A program made the position numbers and the translations under genes. Source: Eledone cirrhosa (lineage: Eukaryota). Taken from it: a stretch of DNA of 64,000 bases. The stretch covers positions 154,380,001 through 154,444,000 of the forward strand of contig OZ024740.1 in NCBI GenBank assembly GCA_964016885.1. The letters are read 5' to 3'. Under the pieces are notes generated by a model, which searched no databases, had not been told where the DNA came from, and worked only from the letters and a program-made list of their open reading frames with translations. This document shows positions 12,198 to 64,000 of this stretch, piece by piece (the stretch's first letter is position 1; every line of letters begins with the position of its first letter).

Positions 12198-12260
<63 letters not shown>

Positions 12261-12263
<3 letters not shown>

Positions 12264-12462
12264 AAAATGTTCAAGACTCCGACGGCAGAGCTCAGGCCGT
12301 TTCGACGGCTATTTCCGTCCAGAAATAGCCAAATAGCCGTCGAAACGGCTTGAGCTCTGCCGTCGGTTTCTTAAACATTTTCCTATTACCCACTCTATTA
12401 CCCTAAGTATTGAGTACACTAGTGCGTTATGGTCCACCTGGTTCCTTACCACAGTCCCTTCG

Positions 12463-12465
<3 letters not shown>
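12261..12465. mobile_element. Short fold-back insertion in (TA)n
   Basis: Inverted repeat 12261-12313 / 12331-12384 with a 3' tail. Confidence 0.7.
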
Positions 12466-12517
<52 letters not shown>

Positions 12518-12522
<5 letters not shown>

Positions 12523-14391: not shown

Positions 14392-14998
14392 AATTAAGTT
14401 AAAAATGTACATCCACATATGTATACTGAAATACTAGTATGCATATGAATACACACACGTGTACATATGTAGATGTACCGAGTTTTCACTGGTCACTTTA
14501 CTGTGAGTGTCCAGCTATTCTGTATGTAGACACACAGACAAACCGGTTCTTAGAGTCATACTGGTTTTTGAGGAAACACCTTTCCTCTATTCTCCAGAAA
14601 GCCAGACAAGGAATATTGGACTAGTTTCGATGTTGTTACATCTCATCAGCAATATTTACCTATCTTCCGGCTTCTCTAGAGAATCGTGAAAGCACATATC
14701 GTTATATGCTTTTTCTATGAAAATTAGTAGTGGGCAGACCAATTTGCATAGAGCGTGAGTACGTACCGGTTCAACGGAGACGATAAAAACAAATAACGAA
14801 ACGAAATTAAATTTCGTTTCGTTTGTAACTCACTTTTGTATGACTGACGCTTAAACAATTAAGTTAAAAATGTACATCCACATATGTATACTGAAATACT
14901 AGTATGCATATGAATACACACACGTGTACATATGTAGATGTACCGAGTTTTCTGTGACCAGTGAAAACTCGGTACATCTACATATGTACACGTGTGTG
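14392..14998 (-). mobile_element. Non-coding HHR element (family C, divergent), about 465-nt unit plus short inversion
   Basis: 14392-14490 is repeated at 14857-14952; 14956-14998 is inverted; shares motifs with 54836-57270. Confidence 0.8.
14612..14656 (-). ncRNA. Canonical minimal type I hammerhead ribozyme
   Basis: AATATTG-CTGATGA-GATGT aaca ACATC-GAAA-CTAG-TC-CAATATT; fully canonical with a GUC cleavage site. Confidence 0.92.
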
Positions 14999-17624: not shown

Positions 17625-19713
17625 TGCATGTTCTTCTGGTTTTATAATTTCACAAATGGTTACCAATAGAGAGAGAGTCGGTTTCTAACATAGACACAAG
17701 ACTCTCACATCGGAATTTACACAACATCAACTAGGTAGATATGTATGTATGCATGCATGTGTAGATATGGATGTTATTGTATGTGTGGATGTGGATGTTT
17801 TGAGTTGTATGTGTGCATGTCTATATGCTTTGCATCTGCACATATGTATATGCAGTTATTAGATGCAAAATTTTTGGAATGTTTTACATATTTTTACTGT
17901 TCCATTAATGGATTGTACTTGTAATTTCCTAACTAGTTGTGTTCTTTCTGTTCCTGTGAAGCCTGGCTTCTCAAGATTTGTATTGAGGCAGTTACTAACA
18001 TATCCCAGTGCCCCAATAATCACAGGCATAAATCTGAAGGTGTAATCAGGGTGGAGTATCTGCAGATTTCTCATCAGTTCTGCATAAATATTCTCCTTTT
18101 CACTAATGTTTGATATTACATTGGCATATGCTGGGCAGCTAATTTCCACTACTGTGCATGCTTTCTTCCACTGTCCCATATCATAATATCTGGTCTGTTA
18201 TGCCTGCATTTTATTGGGGTTTTTACTAGAACATTCCACTAGTACTCTTTCATATTATGTACATGGATGTCTTCCACATTGCTGTAGCTTTTAATGTGTT
18301 TATTATAGGGGCTATCTTTTTTACGAACTGCATTGTACAGTGTTTTGGCCACTACACCATGCCTCATAGGTAGATAGAACCGCGATGGCATCTTTGGACA
18401 GCTACTGATCAATGTTAGTTCTGCAGAGTCTGCACTTGTTATCATATCTAGGTGTTTTGCCTGCATCCCTATCTCTTTTGTGAATCAGGTATTTCGTGTT
18501 AATCTCCTGTTCTTGGATGTCAAAAGCGTATCCTTCAAAGTGGGAGCCAATATAGCTGTTGTTGGTCCAAGATAGACTACTTTCCTTATCTATATTACTC
18601 TCACTCTGGAGCTTTCTGGCAACATATCCATGCATGATTTTTTGCTGATAAGCATGCAGTTTTTCATCCATGGATTCACTGCGATACTGCTGAGCGACAT
18701 CCCTGGGTGTAAGTTTTTGATTATCACACAGGGAATATCTCTCGAGGAGTTCCTTCCCAACTCTCATGATCTTATCTGTTTCATGCAGATAGACTTGCTC
18801 GAGAAACGGGCTCCTACGCTTCGAGGTTAGTATATGTTGTCGGAGAAATATGATGCGACATTCAAATGTTGTCTGGACTGATGTTAGGCCTCTGCCTTCC
18901 TGCTTACGTTTCAAGTAAAGGCAGTCTATGTCACTGTTGATGTGGAAGTTTCCGGTGTTGTTTAGTGTTTTTCGAGTTCCAACATCAACTGCTCGGATTT
19001 CGTCTATCGTCCAATTGAGTATTCCAAACGTTGGTGTTAGGACAGGCACAGCAAACACATTGTGAGCCACTGTTTTGTTTTGCGCAGAGAGTTACGATGA
19101 CCAGATCTTTCTTAATCGGGTGTAGTATTCCCTGGTAACGCGTTCTTTATTACAGATACCATTATAGGATATGTTCTCATCTATCCCCACGTATCTGTAG
19201 CAGTCCGCATCAGATATCGGTGAAACAGTTAGGCCATTGATTACAATGTTGCTAGATTGGGTTGTTGTTTTTCCCCGCTTTACAGTCATGTATGAGCATT
19301 TATCTTGGCCAAACTCCATTCCTATATCCTTTGAGAACATTGTAACCATGTCAAGAATTTTCTTCATCCCATCCATGTTCTTGGCATAGAGTTTCAGATC
19401 GTCCACAAAGAAATTATGGGTTAGGTTCGTATTTCTGTCCTCCTGTGAGCCAATGATGTATCCCTCACATTTCTTGAGCAGAAAGGACAAGGGGTTTAAT
19501 GACAAGATGAATAATATCACAGAGAGACTGTCCCCCTGAAATATACCCCTGCAATATTTTATTTTATCAGTGAAAATAGAGTTCTCCCTCTCTGTCTTTA
19601 ACCATAGGATAGTAGCCCAAGAAGAAGACAGCCTCTCTATGGCTCTGACAATAATGTCTGGGACTTTAGCAAGTTGGAGGGCCTCTATCATCCAAGAGTG
19701 GGGAACAGAATCG
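17625..19713 (-). mobile_element. R4/Dong-clade non-LTR retrotransposon, 5'-truncated (RT, CCHC knuckle, RLE endonuclease, 3' UTR)
   Basis: YDSVPHSW, RGIFQGDSLS, FFVDDLKLY, GMEFGQDKC, CRLC zinc knuckle, RPDI..VEISCP..EK..Y RLE motif; frameshifts and stops; (CATA)n-type flanks. Confidence 0.9.
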
Positions 19714-19837
19714 TATGTATGTATGCATGTATGCATTTTTATGTATGCATATGTATATATGTATGTATGTATTTATGCATGCATGTATGCATTTGTATGT
19801 ATGCGTATGTATATATGTTTGTAAGTATGTATGTAGA

Positions 19838-22437: not shown

Positions 22438-23650
22438 TTAGTGCAATTTATGTTTACAAGCCGAAATTGCCTCAGAAATTTTGTTTAAGATGTGGTCTGT
22501 GGCGTAGAGTATTTCCAGGGCCTCAGTGGCGCAGAGGTCACATGGTCTTTTATTTCCGTTATACAATCTAGCCCTAGCTGGGATCTCCCAGTGTAACTTA
22601 TATTGGCTGTGGTTGTCTTTTAGACTCCAGATATAAGCTGAAAGTGACGTCATATTCCTTCTTAGAGAGTAACGAAAAGAATGGGTATGCATGTAAAGAC
22701 ACTGCTTGAATCTATTGGCGGTTAACCCTATGTAGGCCCTACGGGACGTGGGTGTTTCAACCTTACATTTGTAGACAATGTTACTAGTGAGGCATTTCCC
22801 GGATAGGGGGCAATCAACCCGATTCCTACAATTACAGTTAGTACTAACTACAGGGTTGCACGTGTTCCTACGGCAAGGTAGTTTAGCTAAATTTGAAGCT
22901 GTGATGTTATGTGCAAGGTTAGGAGTCGTAGAGTAAGAAATTTTAATAGTATTTCAATTAAAAATTTTACTTATATTTATGTGTAGGGGGAAAATGCTTC
23001 GTAATAAGGGATAGAAGATCTTAGATAATGGTGTGGCCACCTCCATATTATATGGTGGGTTATACCATATGATGCGACGGGATCTAGTTCTTCTAGGTCT
23101 ATTCTCGTACTCTGTATATGCTACCTTATCGACAAATCCACTCCGAGCAAGAGCTTCATTGTAATAAGTGGAATGGTCGTTGAAAATATGCTTGTTAGTA
23201 GATAGACGGGAAAGCCTCAACGAAACGTTTCTTACCAGGTTCTTGGTTATGCTGGCAGGATGGTTGGAATGCTTACTTATGTAATTAAGCGTATCATTCA
23301 GCTTTCTATACGAGTAATACAAGCCATTCAATAAATTGAGGGTAACGTCGAGGTAATTAACGACCGAGAAGTTGGCCTCAACCTGTATAGAGAGGTTGAA
23401 GCCTTTAAAGAAGGCTGTGAGTTCTTTTCTGAACATGTCGCAAGCTCGAGGGCCGCACTTAGTGATGGTCAAAAGACCATCATCACGGTACAAACCTCCG
23501 CCCACGTTGAGGAATTCGTCCTTGATAGAGAAAAAAAGGAAAAGGCCGATAAGATCAGTAACCTCCGCGGGAATCGCCGGCGCCCATACTCACGTCGAAT
23601 GGGGTACTATTGGATTTTTTTATCCAAATAGAGTCGTCGAAATTAATCAC
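22438..23650 (-). pseudogene. PLE RT plus GIY-YIG coding region (frameshifted)
   Basis: ORF pieces 22954-23505 and 22438-22692 plus the intervening cysteine-rich linker. Confidence 0.9.
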
Positions 23651-24077: not shown

Positions 24078-24199
24078 TTAATCTGTTATTTTAATAAATA
24101 TTTGGTCTACGGTTCTTATATATAACTGATATATATTTATCCGTATCGAGCCCTGTTTGGATTTTAGTCTTCAAATTTATTATTATTACTATATATATA

Positions 24200-26671
<2,472 letters not shown>

Positions 26672-28059: not shown

Positions 28060-29898
28060 ATGGTTATACGGAACAGCCGAATACTGGTGGTTCAGGAAAC
28101 TTTCCTTAAATCATCCCTCCACCATACCCACATAGGATTTGACCTCCTGTGGTTGATTTGGTCGGTTGGAAGTGACCACAGCTTCATAAATTACACCGGG
28201 TGTGTTGCATTGCTGTTGAAGGGGACAACCTTTGGGCTTACGGCAAGAGCACCCTGGTGGGGTGTTGCTCTTAGGGCTGTTTGTGATGTGGATCTTCATG
28301 TCCTTAGCGCAGGAGTATCCTAGTTTTACTGTGTCGATTAAAGATGGAGCGGTATTTATGACCTATGGAAAAGTGTCTATCTAAGAGGGCTAGAAATTGT
28401 TTGCCTACATTGATTTTAACATTGAGTGAGAAGGGAGGAGAGAGCCAGATAGTTTGTCTATTGTTACGCTTTCTTTTCTGTTGATAGTGGGAGAGTAAGT
28501 GATAGGTTGCGAGAAGCCGCTGTTAGGTAACGCCGTGTTATAGTAGGGTGCCGCCCTGTCAAAGGTAGCCTTATTAGAGGAGAGGTTTGAGATTCTAGTA
28601 CTGATATTATTTACGAAGTTTCTAAAAACAGTGGGAGGGTGGCATGAGTCCTTGTGAATGTAATTGAGTTTATCGTTTAGCTTATGGAAGGGTCTGTAGG
28701 TGTGTGTGCGAAGGTCTAAATTAATGTCTAAGAAATCCACGCTAGAGAGGTTGGTAGTTACTGTTATCCTAAGTCCTATCTCATTGAATGTAGAAGCTAA
28801 GTCTTTTTTAAACCGGTCGAGATCGTGACCACTTTTATGGCTCGATAAGATCAGCCCATCGTCACGGTATATTCCCGTGTGGAAGTCCGGGAATCTAACA
28901 CGTAATATGTCTAAGATAAAAAGGCCCACCAAGTCGCATACGTCAGCACTGTCAAACGATCCCATGGAGACGTCGAATAGGTCTGAAGTTGTTGACTTCT
29001 TTGCCCAGGCTACTCCGTCGTTGAAGAGGAGGGTTTTCCGGCAGTGAGTGATGATTTCCCTGTCTAAACCATGGACGGTAGTGTAAGTGGTAGCGAAGTC
29101 CAAGGCTTTGTTTAACAGGGTCTCTGAGATCGACGGGTAAAAATCAACAATGTCAAACTGTGTGAACTTCGCTTTTTTGGATATTAAGGAGTTAAACCAC
29201 TTAATTACGGAGTCGCTGTTCTCCCACTGGGGCAGGTTGGACTTGGTCCTAATGGTGTTAACTATGTTTCTAAGTATGGCCTTACTGACTAGTCCCATAT
29301 CTGTGCCTGCCGGGTTTATTAGTCTACATGTGGAGTTAGAAGTAAAGTCTACCTTGTGATCTTTCAGGGTGAGGAACGCCTCCCGCGTAGCTAGAGATTG
29401 TAGTTTCTTATCTACCTTAAGGGCGGCAGCAAGTTCTTTGGCTTCTGTATTAATATCGTGGTAGGCCATAGGGTTAGCTTTCTTATATTTGGAAGTAATA
29501 GCGTTATGGGCCAGGTGGCGGAAAGTGGTGTTGTCGACTTCGTAAATATTATTAGTTTTGTCGGAAAGAACGAAAGTGTTATTAGAGGACCTAAATTTCT
29601 TAATATCATTTATAAGTTTAGTTTGAAAGGTGTTAGGGTGTTTGCGAAAGGAAATGTTAGCGACTAAGTCAAGATGGTCCGCCTCGAAAGGAGCAAGTTC
29701 AGTTACCTTAGGAGGATAGGCTCTCGATTTCAGGTTGAAGGTGTTATTGGTGCCTGCAATTTTGCCGTCAAAAGCTAGGGCTCGCCATCTTCAGCGTCTG
29801 ACGACATCTTCCGATTTTTGTAGGAGAAGCTTTTGGTAAACATGGTTGGAGGGAGTGGGAATGTTCTTCAGGGAGTAATCCAGTTCGTATAAATCCAT
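28060..29898 (-). pseudogene. PLE RT plus partial GIY-YIG ORF with stops and frameshifts
   Basis: ORF pieces 29412-29609, 28405-29469 and 28111-28299. Confidence 0.9.
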
Positions 29899-46495: not shown

Positions 46496-46515
46496 TATAT
46501 ATATATATATATATA

Positions 46516-46885
46516 AATGGAGTAGAATGAAACGAAATTTCATTTCTCACTCTTAGTACGGCACTTACTTAAATGTAAGTATGCATGTATGTATACGTAC
46601 ACACATATATGTATACAGACGTACAGTAGTATGTATATATATACATACATGCACACATATATACATACATGCACACAGTGTTGAACAAAAAGGTGACGTG
46701 GTTGCCTAAACACTGTATGGCGTAATTCGGACTATTTGTTTGTTTACAAACAAACAAACCGAGCATTATAATAAATGTTCGGTAAACCGATACGTGCATA
46801 TATATATGTGTGCATGTATGTATATATATACATACTACTGTACGTCTGTATACATATATGTATGTATGTATACATACATACTTAC

Positions 46886-46890
<5 letters not shown>
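46516..46890. mobile_element. Family C fold-back fragment
   Basis: Matches 54860-55010 and 55850-56110. Confidence 0.75.
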
Positions 46891-46934
<44 letters not shown>

Positions 46935-46937
46935 TAT

Positions 46938-47765
46938 TATATTTCGTTTCTGAATTTGTTTAGCAAGATTCTTTATCTGAAATTGTGTGTTGAAACCGAT
47001 ATTGTTATGCTTTGGGGAGGTCATGTTGCCAATAAGAAACAAACGCACCAATTGCTTTCACTTCAATTTATTATAAATTAAATTTATAAATTTAGGAATT
47101 TATAAATTTCCGGTTGGTTGGTTCCACAACCAGACGATTATTCATATATTGTCAAAGTTCTTTCGTCACTTATTAGCAATACATTAGCAATACATTAGCA
47201 ATACATTAGCAATACATACCCTTTAAGAAATGTATAATCTGTAAATGAAACCCCCATATTAATTGTAAAACTAGAAATGTAGTATATAGCATAAGATGCA
47301 CTGAAGGACAATGTAGAGATAAGAATATAGTGTACATAGGTGAGACAGCTCGTAGTATAGGGGAACGGATAAATGAACACTGGCGAGAGCTTCAAGATAG
47401 TAAAGAATCATCTGTACTCCACCAACATGCTAAAATAGAACATAAGGGTAAATTTCAGAACATAGAAATAAAAATAGAATCTACACACAGAAAAGACGCA
47501 ATGTTTAGACAAATCACAGAGGCAATAAACATAAATGAACTCCATCCAAAATTAAATAGAAAACATGAATGGAATAGCAACATCACAACTTACAATTAAG
47601 GACTAAATGAAAACACACACGCACATAGAAAAACCAACCAACCAGTAACATCTAAATAAACAAATAAATAAACAAATATAAACACACACAGACACCCGGA
47701 TGTAACACATGCGCAAACAAAGCACACAACACACACAAAAACAAGATGGTGTAGGACAGAACAAA
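46938..47765 (+). mobile_element. PLE family A: inverted 3' end plus GIY-YIG fragment (47330-47599)
   Basis: VYIGETARSIGERINEH..RQITEAI..LNRKHEWN. Confidence 0.9.
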
Positions 47766-47868
47766 TGTACGTAGCCGAATTTTCGGCTTTTGAAGCACTG
47801 AGAATATGGCAATATACTGTATGTTTAATTAAAAACATTTACAAGACCATTCGCTATGAGTTTTAAAG

Positions 47869-47934
<66 letters not shown>

Positions 47935-47971
47935 CTTTAAAACTCATAGCGAATGGTCTTGCAAATGTTTT

Positions 47972-49402
<1,431 letters not shown>

Positions 49403-54739: not shown

Positions 54740-54836
<97 letters not shown>

Positions 54837-55158
54837 TTGAAAAAAATGAAAACGAAAAACGAAATTTCATTTCTCACTCTTAGTATGGCACTTAAATGTA
54901 AGTATGTATGTATACGTACATACATATATGTATACAGACGTACAGTAGCATGCATATATATATATATATATATATATGTATACACATATATATATACATA
55001 CATACATGCAGGTACACATACATATATGCACGCATCAGTTTAGCAGACGCTTATTATAGCGCTTGCTTTGTTCGTTTGTCAACAAACTGAACAGCCTGAA
55101 TTTATGCCATACGGTGTTAAGGCAACCACGTCACCTTTTTGTTCAACACTGACACAGG

Positions 55159-55203
55159 AACGATGTACTAGTTTCAAGCTTGTTAGCTATCATCAGCACC
55201 GTT
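55159..55203 (-). ncRNA. Minimal hammerhead ribozyme (family C)
   Basis: AACGGTG-CTGATGA-tAGCT aaca AGCTt-GAAA-CTAG-TA-CATCGTT. Confidence 0.88.
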
Positions 55204-55654
55204 TACCCATCTGCCAGATAGTTGAACGTTCGAAAGTATATACTTTCCTTATGAAAATTAACGGCTGAGCAGCCTAATTTGCATATTGAGTGAGTTAAAT
55301 CGGTCAGGCATACCGAAAACGATAAGTTGAAAAAAATGAAAACGAAAAACGAAATTTCATTTCTCACTCTTAGTATGGCACTTACTTAAATGTAAGTATG
55401 TATGTATACGTACATACATATATGTATACAGACGTACAGTAGCATGCATATATATATATATATATATATATATGTATACACATATATATATACATACATA
55501 CATGCAGGTACACATACATATATGCACGCATCAGTTTAGCAGACGCTTATTATAGCGCTTGCTTTGTTCGTTTGTCAACAAACTGAACAGCCTGAATTTA
55601 TGCCATACGGTGTTAAGGCAACCACGTCACCTTTTTGTTCAACACTGACACAGG

Positions 55655-55699
55655 AACGATGTACTAGTTTCAAGCTTGTTAGCTATCATCAGCACCGTT
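55655..55699 (-). ncRNA. Minimal hammerhead ribozyme (family C, tandem copy)
   Basis: Identical motif 496 nt from the previous copy. Confidence 0.88.
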
Positions 55700-56018
55700 T
55701 ACCCATCTGCCAGATAGTTGAACGTTCGAAAGTATATACTTTCCTTATGAAAATTAACGGCTGAGCAGCCTAATTTGCATATTGAGTGAGTTAAATCGGT
55801 GAGTTAAATCAGTGAGTTAAATCAGTGAGTTAAATCGGTGAGTTAAATCAGTGTTGAACAAAAAGGTGACGTGATTGCCTTAACACCGTATGGCATAAAT
55901 TCAGGCTGTTCAGTTTGTTGACAAACGAACAAAGCAAGCGCTATAATAAGCGTCTGCTAAACTGATGCGTGCATATATGTATGTGTACCTGCATGTATGT
56001 ATGTATATATATATGTGT

Positions 56019-56055
<37 letters not shown>

Positions 56056-56296
56056 TGCTACTGTACGTCTGTATACATATATGTATGTACGTATACATAC
56101 ATACTTACATTTAAGTAAGTGCCATACTAAGAGTGAGAAATGAAATTTCGTTTTTCGTTTTCATTTTTTTCAACTTATCGTTTTCGGTATGCCTGACCGA
56201 TTTAACTCACTCAATATGCAAATTAGGCTGCTCAGCCGTTAATTTTCATAAGGAAAGTATATACTTTCGAACGTTCAACTATCTGGCAGATGGGTA

Positions 56297-56341
56297 AACG
56301 GTGCTGATGATAGCTAACAAGCTTGAAACTAGTACATCGTT
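56297..56341 (+). ncRNA. Minimal hammerhead ribozyme (family C, inverted copy)
   Basis: Identical motif on the plus strand. Confidence 0.88.
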
Positions 56342-56713
56342 CCTGTGTCAGTGTTGAACAAAAAGGTGACGTGGTTGCCTTAACACCGTATGGCATAAAT
56401 TCAGGCTGTTCAGTTTGTTGACAAACGAACAAAGCAAGCGCTATAATAAGCGTCTGCTAAACTGATGCGTGCATATATGTATGTGTACCTGCATGTATGT
56501 ATGTATATATATATGTGTATACATATATATATATATATATATATATATGCATGCTACTGTACGTCTGTATACATATATGTATGTACGTATACATACATAC
56601 TTACATATATATATATATATATATAATGAAAAATTGAACAGGGACAGAACAGAGAGGCAGTACAATAAATGTTTATTAAATTCACGCTCAGGAGAGTGGG
56701 GGGTAGGTGGGGG

Positions 56714-56745
56714 ACGACGTTTCGGGCATAAGCCCTTCTTCAGGT
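56714..56745 (-). ncRNA. Minimal Penelope-type hammerhead in a 120-nt TA-flanked insert (56627-56748)
   Basis: AC-CTGAAGA-aGGGC ttat GCCC-GAAA-CG-TC-GT, then AATAAA; the insert is truncated just 5' of the core. Confidence 0.8.
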
Positions 56746-56760
56746 GATATATATATATAT

Positions 56761-57266
56761 AAGTTGTAATATAATTAAACGAAATTTCATTTCTCACTCT
56801 TAGTACGGCACTTACTTAAATGTAAGTATGTATGTATACGTACATACATATATTTATACAGACGTACAGTAGCATGCATATATATATATATATACATACA
56901 GGTACACATATATATATGTACGTATCAGTTTAGCGAACGTTTATTATAACGCCCGCTTTGTTCGTTTGTAAACAAGCGAACAGCCTGATTTATGCCATAC
57001 GGTGTTAAGGCAACCACGTCACCTTTTTGTTCAACACTGACACAGGAACGATGTACTAGTTTCAAGCTTGTTAGCTATCATCAGCACCGTATACCTTTCT
57101 GCCAGATAGTTGAACGTTCGAAAGTATATACTTTCCTTATGAAAATTAACGGCTGAGCAGCCTAATTTGCATATCGAGTGAGTTAAGTCGGCCAGGCGAT
57201 AAGTTGTAATATAATGAAACGAAATTTCATTTCTCACTCTTAGTACGGTACTTACTTAAATGTAAG

Positions 57267-57270
<4 letters not shown>
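56761..57270 (-). mobile_element. Family C variant, about 440-nt unit, HHR at 57047-57091
   Basis: 56761-56830 is repeated at 57201-57270. Confidence 0.85.
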
Positions 57271-57318
<48 letters not shown>

Positions 57319-60930: not shown

Positions 60931-60971
<41 letters not shown>

Positions 60972-61105
60972 AGGATGAATATAAAATGAAAGTGCTTTTG
61001 TTAAAAAAGGAATTTATTAGGTATTGACATGTTTCTGTAACAGACCGAATACCTATGTATCGCTGCTTGCGTAATCATATAATGTTAGCAAGTATTCGAT
61101 AGCAA

Positions 61106-62911
61106 ATGTATAATCAGTTGTCACTTCTTCAGGACCACAAGGTAAACTTCGATACTAACCCTAATATTAGACTTATATGCCCCTCTAAATCTGATATAGG
61201 TAAAATTAGCAAATATATACTAGACAGAATTATCCCCCAAGTTAAGGTTAAAGTAGAGATTAAACTATGGGGTAACACTCATGAAGCAATAAGATGGTTT
61301 AATAACATTACTGATAAGAAAAAATCAAAATTTATTCAGTTTGATATTGATGAATATTATTCCTCAATTTCACCTGATACTCTACATGAAGCTCTTTCGT
61401 TCGCTAAGGATAATTCCGACCTTACGGATGCTGAAATTAAAATTATTATGGAAGCGAGAAAAACTATAGTTAAATTCGATGATAGCTACTGGGTTCGCAA
61501 AGATAGACCTTCTAATTTTGATATCACTATGGGTTCTAATGATTCGGCGGAAGTAACAGATCTTGTGGGAATTTATATCACCCACAGATTACAAGGAAAA
61601 TTCAAGGATCTCCACGGTGGAATTTACCGTGACGATGCGCTCCTATTAGTTAAGCATATGAATAACCAGAATTTAGAAAGGATGCGTAAAAATATCAGAA
61701 AGCTTTTTAAGGAACTAGGATTAAATATTACATTTGAATATAACCTCAAAGAGGTCAATTTCCTTGATGTTACTTTCAATCTCAATACAGATACGATTAA
61801 ACCGTTCCATAAACTAAATGAGAACCTTAAATATGTAAATATGAGTTCTAACCATCCACTCTCTATAATTAAATCCATCCCTAGAAATGTTTCTCTTAGG
61901 ATCTCCCGCCTGTCGTCCAACCAACAAACCTTCAAAGAACATGCCGAGTATTATGATGATGCACTTAGGAAAGCCGGTCACCTAGATAATATAGAGTATA
62001 TAGTCAAAGATCACCAAAACACCCAAAATAAATCACATAGGAGTGGAAATAGCACAGAATCACCACCATACAAACACTACCGCAATAGACACAATAATAG
62101 TCGCACACCACCAAACAGAAGGCGATGTAAGGAGTATATCTGGTACAACCCGGTCTATAACAACTCTATTAAAACCAATCTACCCTCAAAATTCTTTAGA
62201 TTAGTTAGAAAACACTTTCCAACATCACATAAATATAATAAAATCTTAAACCCTAACACTATTCGACTTTCATATTCAACCGCCCCTAATATTGAACAAC
62301 ATATAAAAAAGCTTAACGCAAAACGGTTGTATAAACGCCTTCCAACACATAACAATACACGTAAAACATTAGCTATAACATCACAAAACAACAAACAACA
62401 TCCTGTCCTACATAAGCAACCTCATCAACCCATCCATGGCAATACAACAACGCAAAATTATAATTGCAACTGTGTCCAACCAGGAATGTGTCCGTTGAAC
62501 AATCAGTGTCTTGAACGCAACATCGTATACAAATGTACTATCGAATCGGATAGACAGAAGTGGTACTATGTGGGATCTACAGCCACCTCCTTCAAATCAC
62601 GCCTTTATAGACATCGTTACTCGAGAAAACATGAAAACCAGCGTTATGTAACAACACTCGCAGACAAGGCTTGGCAGCTGCGTGAAAATAACCAACAATT
62701 TCACCTAAAATGGGATATAATAGCGGCTGCCCCCCCCCCCCCCCCCCCCATATATTCCCATGGACAGGAATTTTGTAAATTATGTAATGTAGAATTATTT
62801 TGTATTATGAAATCCAAAAACATTTTATTAAATAACAGAATAGAGCGATCGTTATACTGTAACCATCGCTTAAAATCTACATTTTCATATTATAAATACT
62901 ACCAGGATTGA
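61106..62911 (+). CDS. Penelope (Naiad-like) reverse transcriptase plus GIY-YIG endonuclease, N-terminally truncated
   Basis: DHK..RLICPSK, QFDIDEYYSSI, TMGSNDSAE, GIYRDD, NFLDVT, WYNP, CNC..CPL..C..IVYKC..YVGST, CKLC..E..LN.R.E..CNH. The first about 8 codons come from the inverted pLTR. Confidence 0.9.
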   Translation: MYNQLSLLQDHKVNFDTNPNIRLICPSKSDIGKISKYILDRIIPQVKVKVEIKLWGNTHEAIRWFNNITDKKKSKFIQFDIDEYYSSISPDTLHEALSFAKDNSDLTDAEIKIIMEARKTIVKFDDSYWVRKDRPSNFDITMGSNDSAEVTDLVGIYITHRLQGKFKDLHGGIYRDDALLLVKHMNNQNLERMRKNIRKLFKELGLNITFEYNLKEVNFLDVTFNLNTDTIKPFHKLNENLKYVNMSSNHPLSIIKSIPRNVSLRISRLSSNQQTFKEHAEYYDDALRKAGHLDNIEYIVKDHQNTQNKSHRSGNSTESPPYKHYRNRHNNSRTPPNRRRCKEYIWYNPVYNNSIKTNLPSKFFRLVRKHFPTSHKYNKILNPNTIRLSYSTAPNIEQHIKKLNAKRLYKRLPTHNNTRKTLAITSQNNKQHPVLHKQPHQPIHGNTTTQNYNCNCVQPGMCPLNNQCLERNIVYKCTIESDRQKWYYVGSTATSFKSRLYRHRYSRKHENQRYVTTLADKAWQLRENNQQFHLKWDIIAAAPPPPPPIYSHGQEFCKLCNVELFCIMKSKNILLNNRIERSLYCNHRLKSTFSYYKYYQD

Positions 62912-63365: not shown

Positions 63366-63480
63366 CTGAAGAAGTGACAACTGATTATACATTTGCTATC
63401 GAATACTTGCTAACATTATATGATTACGCAAGCAGCGATACATAGGTATTCGGTCTGTTACAGAAACATATGTCAATACC
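63366..63480 (+). ncRNA. Hammerhead-like motif with about 90-nt stem II hairpin
   Basis: CTGAAGA-aGTGACA..long imperfect hairpin..TGTTACa-GAAA-CATATG-TC, then AATAAA; stem I is not evident. Confidence 0.55.
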
Positions 63481-63853
63481 TAATAAATTCCTTTTTTAAC
63501 AAAAGCACTTTCATTTTATATTCATCCTTTCTACATTTTCTCCGGAATATAATTTATACTCGTTGAGCAAACCTGCACGTACGCTGTTCATCTCTAACGT
63601 AACGATATATTATCACTACATTATTGATAACCTGAAATTTTATATATATATATAGTTAAAACATAAAACAAAAACAATAACGAAGAGTGCAGTACAAAGT
63701 GTTAGTATTAGGCTCACGCTTGAGAGTGGAGTCTATATATATATATATATTATATATATATATAGAGAGAGAGAGAGATTTTTTATTTTTTTATTAAAGA
63801 AATTTTAGCCTGATAATGGGGTTTAGAACCCTCAGATAAATGGAAAAAGATGA

Positions 63854-64000
63854 GTATTGATATACATGGGAGTCGAACCGACATCTTTGGTTATCCAGAC
63901 CACTGTGCTACCATTACACCAACACATCACATTGGTGTAATAGTAGCACAGTGGTCTGGATAACCAAAGATGTGGGTTCGACTCCCATGTACATCAATAC
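63854..64000. mobile_element. Head-to-head inverted pair of tRNA-derived sequences
   Basis: TGGTGTAATAGTAGCA A-box/D-arm, TGGT-CTGGATA-ACCA anticodon-like arm, GTGGG-TTCGACT-CCCAT T-arm; no acceptor stem; inverted at 63854-63922 / 63932-64000. Confidence 0.7.

Follow-up and report, generated by a model that had tools for sequence, protein, structure and literature searches.

A putative snRNA-type promoter and a likely Hydra-clade helper for a tandem hammerhead retrozyme of Eledone cirrhosa

A 64,000-nt stretch of the Eledone cirrhosa genome (GCA_964016885.1, contig OZ024740.1, positions 154,380,001 to 154,444,000; hereafter the window) contains non-coding units, each with a hammerhead ribozyme, that follow one another head to tail and are enclosed, together with an inverted copy, by (TA)n. 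How could such a unit be transcribed, copied and inserted, and which enzyme would do it? With fair confidence, it is considered to be a non-coding hammerhead element that is likely copied in trans by the RT/GIY-YIG protein of a Hydra-clade Penelope-like element (PLE) from a likely circular one-unit RNA. A first-pass annotation of this DNA had already proposed a young, non-autonomous ribozyme element copied by a PLE, and had missed the snRNA-type promoter, the strict pairing of long and short ends and the Hydra-clade partner.

The hammerhead-bearing unit has a tandem period of 496 nt (2.0 copies, 98% matches, at 54832-55800), and the tandem, the inverted copy and the flanking (TA)n are present as first annotated (Table 1). 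Units are numbered u1-496 from 55803 on the minus strand; the hammerhead core begins at u112, and cleavage is predicted after u142. Window self-comparison matched the inverted 1.5 units over 55848-56609, and the arm boundary was set at 56606. The hammerhead sequence spelled out in the first-pass annotation recurs exactly in all three units of the insertion that carry it. The left boundary of the span given there moves to 54834, and that span had taken in an unrelated PLE fragment at 56625-56748. The longest ATG-ORF of the circular 496-nt unit has only 54 aa.

Table 1. Coordinates in the window of the insertion, its parts and its relatives.
Feature	Position	Strand	Remarks
Left arm	54834..55803	-	~2 tandem units, sense on minus; 3' end at long site u480-482
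Left (TA)n target	54806..54833		directly outside left arm
Arm-to-arm junction	55785..55853		13-nt unit-derived repeat x5.3, then 4-nt overlap into right arm; presumed stuttered joining of the two arms
Right arm	55848..56606	+	1.5 units, u156 to u414; 3' end at short site
Right (TA)n target	56607..56624		directly outside right arm
66-68-nt tail between short and long start sites (u414-482)	56110..56176	+	read through inside right arm
12-mer TATGCAAATTAG (u23-34)	56215..56226	+	identical to -78 element of host U6 gene
Further 12-mer TATGCAAATTAG copies	55770-55781 and 55274-55285	-	left arm
TCAGC (u40) and TATA box GTATATAC (u65-72)	56232..56264	+	spacing 25 nt, as in host U1/U2/U5 promoters
Predicted transcription start (u96-98)	~56288-56290	+	putative
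Type I hammerhead, right arm	56297..56341	+	predicted cut after 56334 (GUA); palindromic stem III ACUAGU; U-U at 10.1-11.1
Hammerhead, left arm, second unit	55655..55699	-	exact match to first-annotated sequence
Hammerhead, left arm, first unit	55159..55203	-	exact match to first-annotated sequence
One-armed separate insertion, subfamily 87% identical	56761..57271	-	long end 56761; hammerhead 57047-57091
Older subfamily copy	47971..48620	+	long end 48620; hammerhead variant 48320-48364
Two short divergent arms	46515..46890		long end left, short end right; without hammerhead
Sister family C, ~466-nt unit	14392..14998	-	same 12-mer and TATA; G-C-closed hammerhead at 14612-14656
Truncated terminal repeat of unrelated PLE	56625..56748	-	own hammerhead; inserted in same (TA)n

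Genome-wide counting, which the first-pass annotation had suggested, gave 10,299 exact matches of the 39-nt hammerhead core in the 3.0-Gb genome and none of its reversed control, so the occurrence is not due to chance. Twenty places outside the window, among 40 scored candidates, are identical over 281 nt, in keeping with the young age first assigned to the element. The unit is also found in contigs of two other organisms (26 and 1 pieces); a raw-read RNA run from another organism gave 0 matching reads, which says nothing about expression in Eledone. Sixty loci were sampled (all 50 clusters from the first 100 listed core matches and 10 from a similarity search), biased to intact cores and lying mostly in the first 70 Mb of contig 1. 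PLE coding pieces occur in many of their flanks; the unit was not found as the terminal repeat (pLTR) of an ORF at any of the 60 loci, in line with the non-autonomous nature proposed earlier. The first-pass annotation saw none of the window's relatives attached to RT sequence; three insertions elsewhere in the genome are chimeras with a PLE family, Hydra-X. Tandem non-coding units with a type I hammerhead each, no LTR and no RT of their own identify the element, as far as sequence can tell, as a non-LTR retrozyme mobilised like a PLE, a class whose link to PLEs has been published (PMC7229834 and 10.64898/2026.07.22.740005, both in excerpt).

The helices of the ribozyme (I, 7 bp; II, 4 bp; III, short and palindromic) fit the canonical metazoan type I hammerhead as described in excerpts of PMC4209133. 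The first-pass labels "minimal" and "well-formed" therefore need qualification as to size, the fold itself being upheld, and position 10.1-11.1, a highly conserved G-C according to the same excerpts, is U-U in the 496-nt family (family A). Among eight variants of related families, chosen by core pattern and mutually related, this pair is unpaired in five, family A included, and ribozyme activity may consequently be low. Ten of the 15 pairs change on both sides across these variants (0 of 500 shuffles as high), and 87.5% of cells pair, against 24-38% in slid controls, suggesting that the hammerhead fold is under selection. Stem III is palindromic in every variant, which fits cleavage as a dimer (PMC4209133, excerpt). 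Folding of single hammerheads was not significant against shuffles (z -0.8 to -1.6), so support for the fold comes from covariation, and the Rfam hammerhead models gave no match in the window at gathering score. One of nine predicted Xenopus retrozyme dimers was cleaved in vitro (10.64898/2026.07.22.740005, excerpt), and cleavage is dispensable for insertion by a purified PLE (PMC11167929).

The relatives listed by the first-pass annotation are all present; 46515-46890 is without a hammerhead, and 14392-14998 belongs to a separate family, C, which is identical to family A at 257 of 496 positions overall and at 12 of 12 in the 12-mer discussed below. Family C has 2,600 exact cores genome-wide. 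The subfamily hammerhead at 57091-57047 (minus strand) departs from the first-annotated sequence by one flanking base.

The least variable block of the unit is u23-72, where 12 of 2,850 locus-positions differ, against 675 of 17,886 elsewhere outside the ribozyme; these counts share ancestry and no p-value is claimed. Its first 12 nucleotides, u23-34, are identical (12/12) to an element at -78 of the host U6 gene at L122. Five host Pol III genes, namely three U6 types, U6atac and RNase MRP, carry the consensus TATG[CG][AT]AAT[TG]AG at positions -77 to -79, followed after 46-48 nt by a TATA at -31. The 12-mer was absent from 3 of 9 U6 and 7 of 8 U6atac upstream sequences, several of which look like retrocopies, and from all 32 U1, U2, U5 and U3 upstream sequences searched. 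Dinucleotide shuffles of the unit gave it in 11 of 20,000 cases, never with a TATA. At host U1, U2 and U5 genes, [T/C]CAGT is found at about -56, and host Pol II snRNA promoters combine AATTA near -88, TCAGT near -56 and a TATA-like element. Genes for U6, U2 and U5 were noted in tandem arrays at C19:31.78-31.84 Mb, C3:307.35-307.45 Mb and C9:32.79-32.83 Mb.

The same 12-mer recurs well beyond family A. A pattern of 12-mer plus hammerhead core, with families A and C left out, gave 1,560 further matches (control 0), which by eye fall into about a dozen divergent hammerhead sequence types; conservation of the 12-mer there is partly built into the search pattern, that of the TATA and of an invariant CA at +18/19 is not. 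The 12-mer and the TATA are 42 nt apart in family A, 41 nt in C and 40-43 nt in most other families, so that A and C do not have the host U6 spacing of 46-48 nt. Three types, L296, L297 and L298, do show a U6-like spacing of 47-48 nt and could be members transcribed by Pol III. A Pol II core profile, which included one mis-anchored U3 row, found its best match at one common offset in 14 of 20 rows; four family rows score like host genes (p<=0.001) and Pol III genes not at all, family A matching weakly (-0.6, p 0.045; re-scored 1.5 at a different offset). With the 12-mer of Pol III genes, a Pol II-like core and the spacing of neither host class, the putative promoter is a hybrid. The promoter of newt satellite 2 reportedly consists of an octamer and a PSE. 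Pol III would be stopped by the T5 and T7 runs immediately ahead of the long site (PMC5725217, excerpt), which favours Pol II. Excerpts of the literature report an snRNA-type Pol II promoter for newt satellite 2 (PMC2220036, PMC6765202) and a PSE that sets polymerase choice in insects (PMC1761439). It is thus likely, judging from these motifs, that each unit drives its own transcription from an snRNA-type promoter.

Two other readings of the unit bear on this conclusion. The conserved block could be an RNA hairpin needed for replication, as u23-58 pairs in families A, A' and C and the spacing is unlike that of host U6. This appears quite unlikely, since a C that breaks the A and C hairpin and completes the host motif is retained, and since other families keep 12-mer and TATA without the partner arm. 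The unit might also be the orphaned terminal repeat of a rare autonomous PLE outside the sample, which covers 60 of roughly 5,000 loci; in Xenopus, 24 of 57 retrozyme families match known elements, mostly PLE termini (10.64898/2026.07.22.740005, excerpt). Such an origin is still less probable than the hairpin. Neither a recurrent 5' boundary nor a common upstream ORF was found among 37 free 5' flanks, no attached ORF was seen at the loci examined, 14 of family C and 25 of other promoter-bearing families, and the repeats of autonomous elements are without the 12-mer, which was absent near Hydra-X, other Hydra-like and Neptune-like repeat hammerheads, bar one chance-like one-mismatch match. The apparent use of a promoter-bearing unit as a Hydra pLTR at L310 was rejected, as (TA)n separates the two and that Hydra has its own hammerhead. 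PLE adjacencies at L064, L208 and L224 proved to be separate insertions into shared (TA)n, not fusions. A 310-nt tandem hammerhead unit without the 12-mer, seen at L064:6056-8354, has a core resembling the Hydra repeat hammerhead at L310:3640-3680 and is possibly a pLTR-derived retrozyme. In addition, identical insertions at nearby places (L238, L257, L258 and L259; the L304 series) indicate large segmental duplications.

Insertions have a pair of arms that diverge within (TA)n. When 107 arm ends were mapped, 53 lay at a long site, for the most part u477-482 and counting subfamily tails, another 40 lay 66-68 nt upstream at a short site (u399-418, mostly 411-418), and 14 were elsewhere; (TA)n adjoins 86 of the 93 classed ends, bearing out the (TA)n targeting first proposed. 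Both ends could be classed in 27 of 35 divergent arm pairs, the other eight being interrupted, cut by the locus edge or old fragments. Long is paired with short in 26 of the 27 (two with degraded short ends), short with short once (L072) and long with long never (binomial p ~1e-7). The window insertion and 46515-46890 both obey this rule, as do all 10 classifiable pairs among 11 of family C, whose sites lie 65-69 nt apart. In 24 of 35 pairs the arms overlap by 1-20 nt where they join, a weak sign of microhomology because chance may account for 1-2 nt. Twin priming of the L1 kind on a single linear RNA, in which the long arm should stop where the short arm starts, was rejected as a misfit to most loci. 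The retrozyme displays the inverted 5'-truncated arm and one-sided tail of PLE-mobilised DNA. Inverted arms and one-ended tails are known PLE traits (PMC8557442, excerpt), and with a purified PLE reverse transcription begins at two internal sites and both target strands are extended (PMC11167929). What the present data add is the near-strict use of one site of each kind per insertion.

Sequence variants bear on the template. The median distance is 0.4% between arms of one locus and 3.1% between loci, some loci mixing independent insertions. Rare variants occur in both arms in 22 cases, against only 4 cases of fixation in a single multi-unit arm, in a count that includes some loci that are not single insertions. 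At L064, five private variants occur in all 7-8 units covering them, in both arms. Among 25 curated insertions, differences affect one unit at 132 positions and all units at nine; real subset variants are confined to four positions, most apparent ones being alignment-end gaps at u450-459. The presence of private variants in every unit of both arms points to a template one unit long and probably circular, as the first-pass annotation had supposed. Arm 5' ends were not enriched at the cut site (1/108, 2.4 expected) or at the predicted start (3/108, 2.4 expected).

The helper is suggested by the chimeras. Three insertions are joined to one PLE family, Hydra-X, and all obey the long+short rule; together with the PLE-type ends they support the copying by PLE machinery proposed earlier. 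At L074 (C1:26.726 Mb) a Hydra-X long arm is combined with a retrozyme short arm and the junction lies inside the endonuclease domain; at L077 (C1:36.253 Mb) a retrozyme long arm meets a Hydra-X short arm inside the RT domain. These two loci belong to the 60 sampled; both junctions are sense-to-sense, with no (TA)n at the joint. L237 (C1:380.463 Mb), one of 26 extended Hydra-X loci, combines a retrozyme long arm with a near-full Hydra-X short arm; its joint is in the unit's internal TA tract and no retrozyme remainder lies downstream, though it may have arisen by nested insertion and subsequent loss. The Hydra-X family is of young age, the top 40 of 2,204 candidates being at least 99% identical. 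Its natural copy L239 has a repeat-ORF-repeat layout with an 800-aa ORF bearing RWT, DKS, YRDDG and CNCRIKNKC (CxCX5C). Section 11 of PMC8557442 (excerpt) delimits the Hydra clade by RWK-like, DKT and CxCX5C motifs, a C-terminal EN without CCHH, a hammerhead and (TA)n targets, and by its sequence features Hydra-X belongs there. The protein was recognised by neither Pfam nor PDB sequence search; 12 of its 16 unnamed homologues carry PF26215. Most classed Hydra-X copies pair long with short, with one short+short copy (L261). The Hydra-X terminal repeat is unrelated to the 496-nt unit, and no common fold of the two tails was found. Taken together, Hydra-X is likely to be the helper of the retrozyme. 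U6atac and U6 copies without promoters, adjoining TA-rich DNA at L227, L228, L134 and L135, are possibly host RNAs copied in trans by PLE machinery.

Both template and helper can be read otherwise. The template might be a linear read-through of tandem donors, with a weak or dispensable ribozyme and arrays that grow and homogenise later by unequal crossover and arm-to-arm conversion. The U-U closing pair in stem II and the lack of clustering of arm 5' ends at the cut site speak for it, uncleaved RNA is the dominant substrate of purified PLE (PMC11167929), and circle and tandem read-through would give the same DNA. We nevertheless regard this as rather unlikely, given that compensatory changes keep the hammerhead fold across families, that private variants are fixed in every unit of both arms with few subset variants, and that a family C arm of 31 units stands opposite a short inverted arm. 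As for the enzyme, the main role might fall to a PLE other than Hydra-X, Neptune-like or from a different Hydra family, or be divided among several; the chimeras with Hydra-X would then be occasional jumps or later deletions. Tails measure ~90 nt in Hydra-X and 66-68 nt in the retrozyme, to which a Neptune-like family (~60-67 nt) and another Hydra-like family (~70 nt) come closer; the opposite arm derives from other elements at L089 and L103, another Hydra family joins the retrozyme at L107 (long+long, old) and L119, and there are only three Hydra-X chimeras. On the other side, TA-free coding junctions come only from Hydra-X, and in its three chimeras the long+short rule holds even though two unrelated RNAs are involved. 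Coding junctions were seen at 2 of 5 loci with Hydra-X coding DNA and in 0 of 14 family-locus cases for other PLE families, numbers too few to be decisive. A different main helper thus seems somewhat improbable, if less so than a linear template; tail lengths and the chimeras with other elements leave room for further helpers, and Hydra-X may not be unique.

Other elements share the neighbourhood. A 602-aa Hydra-like PLE ORF at 61103-62911 lies between inverted repeats (60964-61132 and 63366-63536); further Hydra-like pieces are at 22438-23589 and 28405-29790, and Neptune-like pieces at 1107-1613, 24190-26567 and 46934-47765. A short segment flanks one (TA)n at 47766-47870 and 47933-47970, with nothing between its inverted copy and the retrozyme at 47971; 47933-47970 is neither PLE coding nor retrozyme-family DNA. 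A small, very common two-armed element in (TA)n, "Y" (12202-12520, L061, L089, L246 and many other loci), has a 78-nt one-sided tail and a long/short architecture like that of the retrozyme, and no hammerhead core was found in it. Two tRNA-like sequences stand head to head on opposite strands at 63858-63988 (Rfam 41 and 35 bits), and a broken non-LTR reverse transcriptase (PF00078, E 8e-15) at 18402-19772 (minus strand) is unrelated to the retrozyme family.

The favoured reading, a retrozyme copied in trans by a Hydra-clade PLE, can be put as a cycle. The snRNA-type promoter would start transcription at u96-98, 7-9 nt before the ribozyme, and by reading into the next unit the RNA would carry a copy of its own upstream promoter. 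Two hammerheads would pair via their palindromic stem III and cut once per unit, releasing a 496-nt monomer to be ligated into a circle. The PLE protein would then nick both (TA)n strands, and of these two nicks one would prime cDNA synthesis at the long site, its counterpart doing so 66-68 nt upstream at the short site; the ends are those observed, the enzymology is conjectural. Each cDNA would extend round the template over 0.1 to >12 units, with occasional switches between it and the mRNA of the helper itself, and the two cDNAs would join by short overlaps and copy each other into a palindromic insertion with a one-sided tail.

A broader reading is put forward tentatively, with somewhat more doubt than belief. 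It holds that about a dozen hammerhead retroelements (>14,000 units) form an old superfamily that captured a hybrid snRNA promoter and keeps it via a circularly permuted monomer. Insertion would be the work of a dimeric PLE enzyme of the Hydra clade, for which the priming of two mutually templating cDNAs, one at each of two fixed sites, is obligatory. If this is true, an animal retrozyme would for the first time have a helper assigned to it directly, and the inverted arms and one-sided tails of PLEs could be explained in general with no need for a separate primer of the second strand. PLEs are named only as candidate helpers of animal retrozymes in excerpts of PMC7229834, and excerpts of 10.64898/2026.07.22.740005 argue for a PLE helper from co-occurrence and repeat homology; how the inverted arms and tails of PLEs arise is described as an unsolved question (PMC8557442, excerpt; PMC11167929). 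Both questions can here be tested in vitro, as the RNA is small and defined, the young helper ORF is intact and two start sites have been mapped; the thousands of young copies offer a genomic readout. So abundant a family also shapes a microsatellite-rich 3-Gb genome, and its comparison with the host yields host snRNA promoter elements.

Literature searches did not find the helper chimeras, the strict end pairing or this promoter, and supplements may list related families. The closest known systems are the metazoan non-LTR retrozymes (PMC7229834; Li, 10.64898/2026.07.22.740005; both in excerpt), which likewise consist of tandem non-coding units, each with a single type I hammerhead; their GC is low, their copies run to thousands, and coexisting PLEs have been proposed as helper. 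Their units measure 170-400 nt in PMC7229834 and 51-972 nt in Li, a range that includes the 496 nt found here. Circles have been shown for them and are predicted for the Eledone element; it differs from what those excerpts describe in its divergent two-armed insertions with fixed long/short ends, in chimeras that name a helper and in having no homology to the helper's terminal repeat. With Hydra-clade PLEs (PMC8557442, excerpt) it shares the (TA)n target, a hammerhead near the 3' end, the inverted 5'-truncated arm and the one-ended tail, and it differs in having no ORF, another hammerhead and tail sequence and its own putative promoter. Chlamys non-autonomous elements such as MRC1 also make PLE-dependent head-to-tail insertions; as described in the same excerpt, they are without hammerheads and have 3' sequence in common with autonomous families, unlike the retrozyme. 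In vitro, the Poseidon PLE of Anolis (PMC11167929) similarly starts reverse transcription at two internal sites that define the tail, and cuts and extends both target strands; no difference between the strands in the choice of start site was seen there, whereas genomic retrozyme copies use each site once per insertion. Newt satellite 2 (PMC2220036, PMC6765202, in excerpt) and schistosome Sm-alpha are also tandem hammerhead units with their own promoter. Compared with these, the retrozyme combines the 12-mer of host Pol III genes with a Pol II-like core register, forms dispersed PLE-type insertions and shares its 12-mer with about a dozen families.
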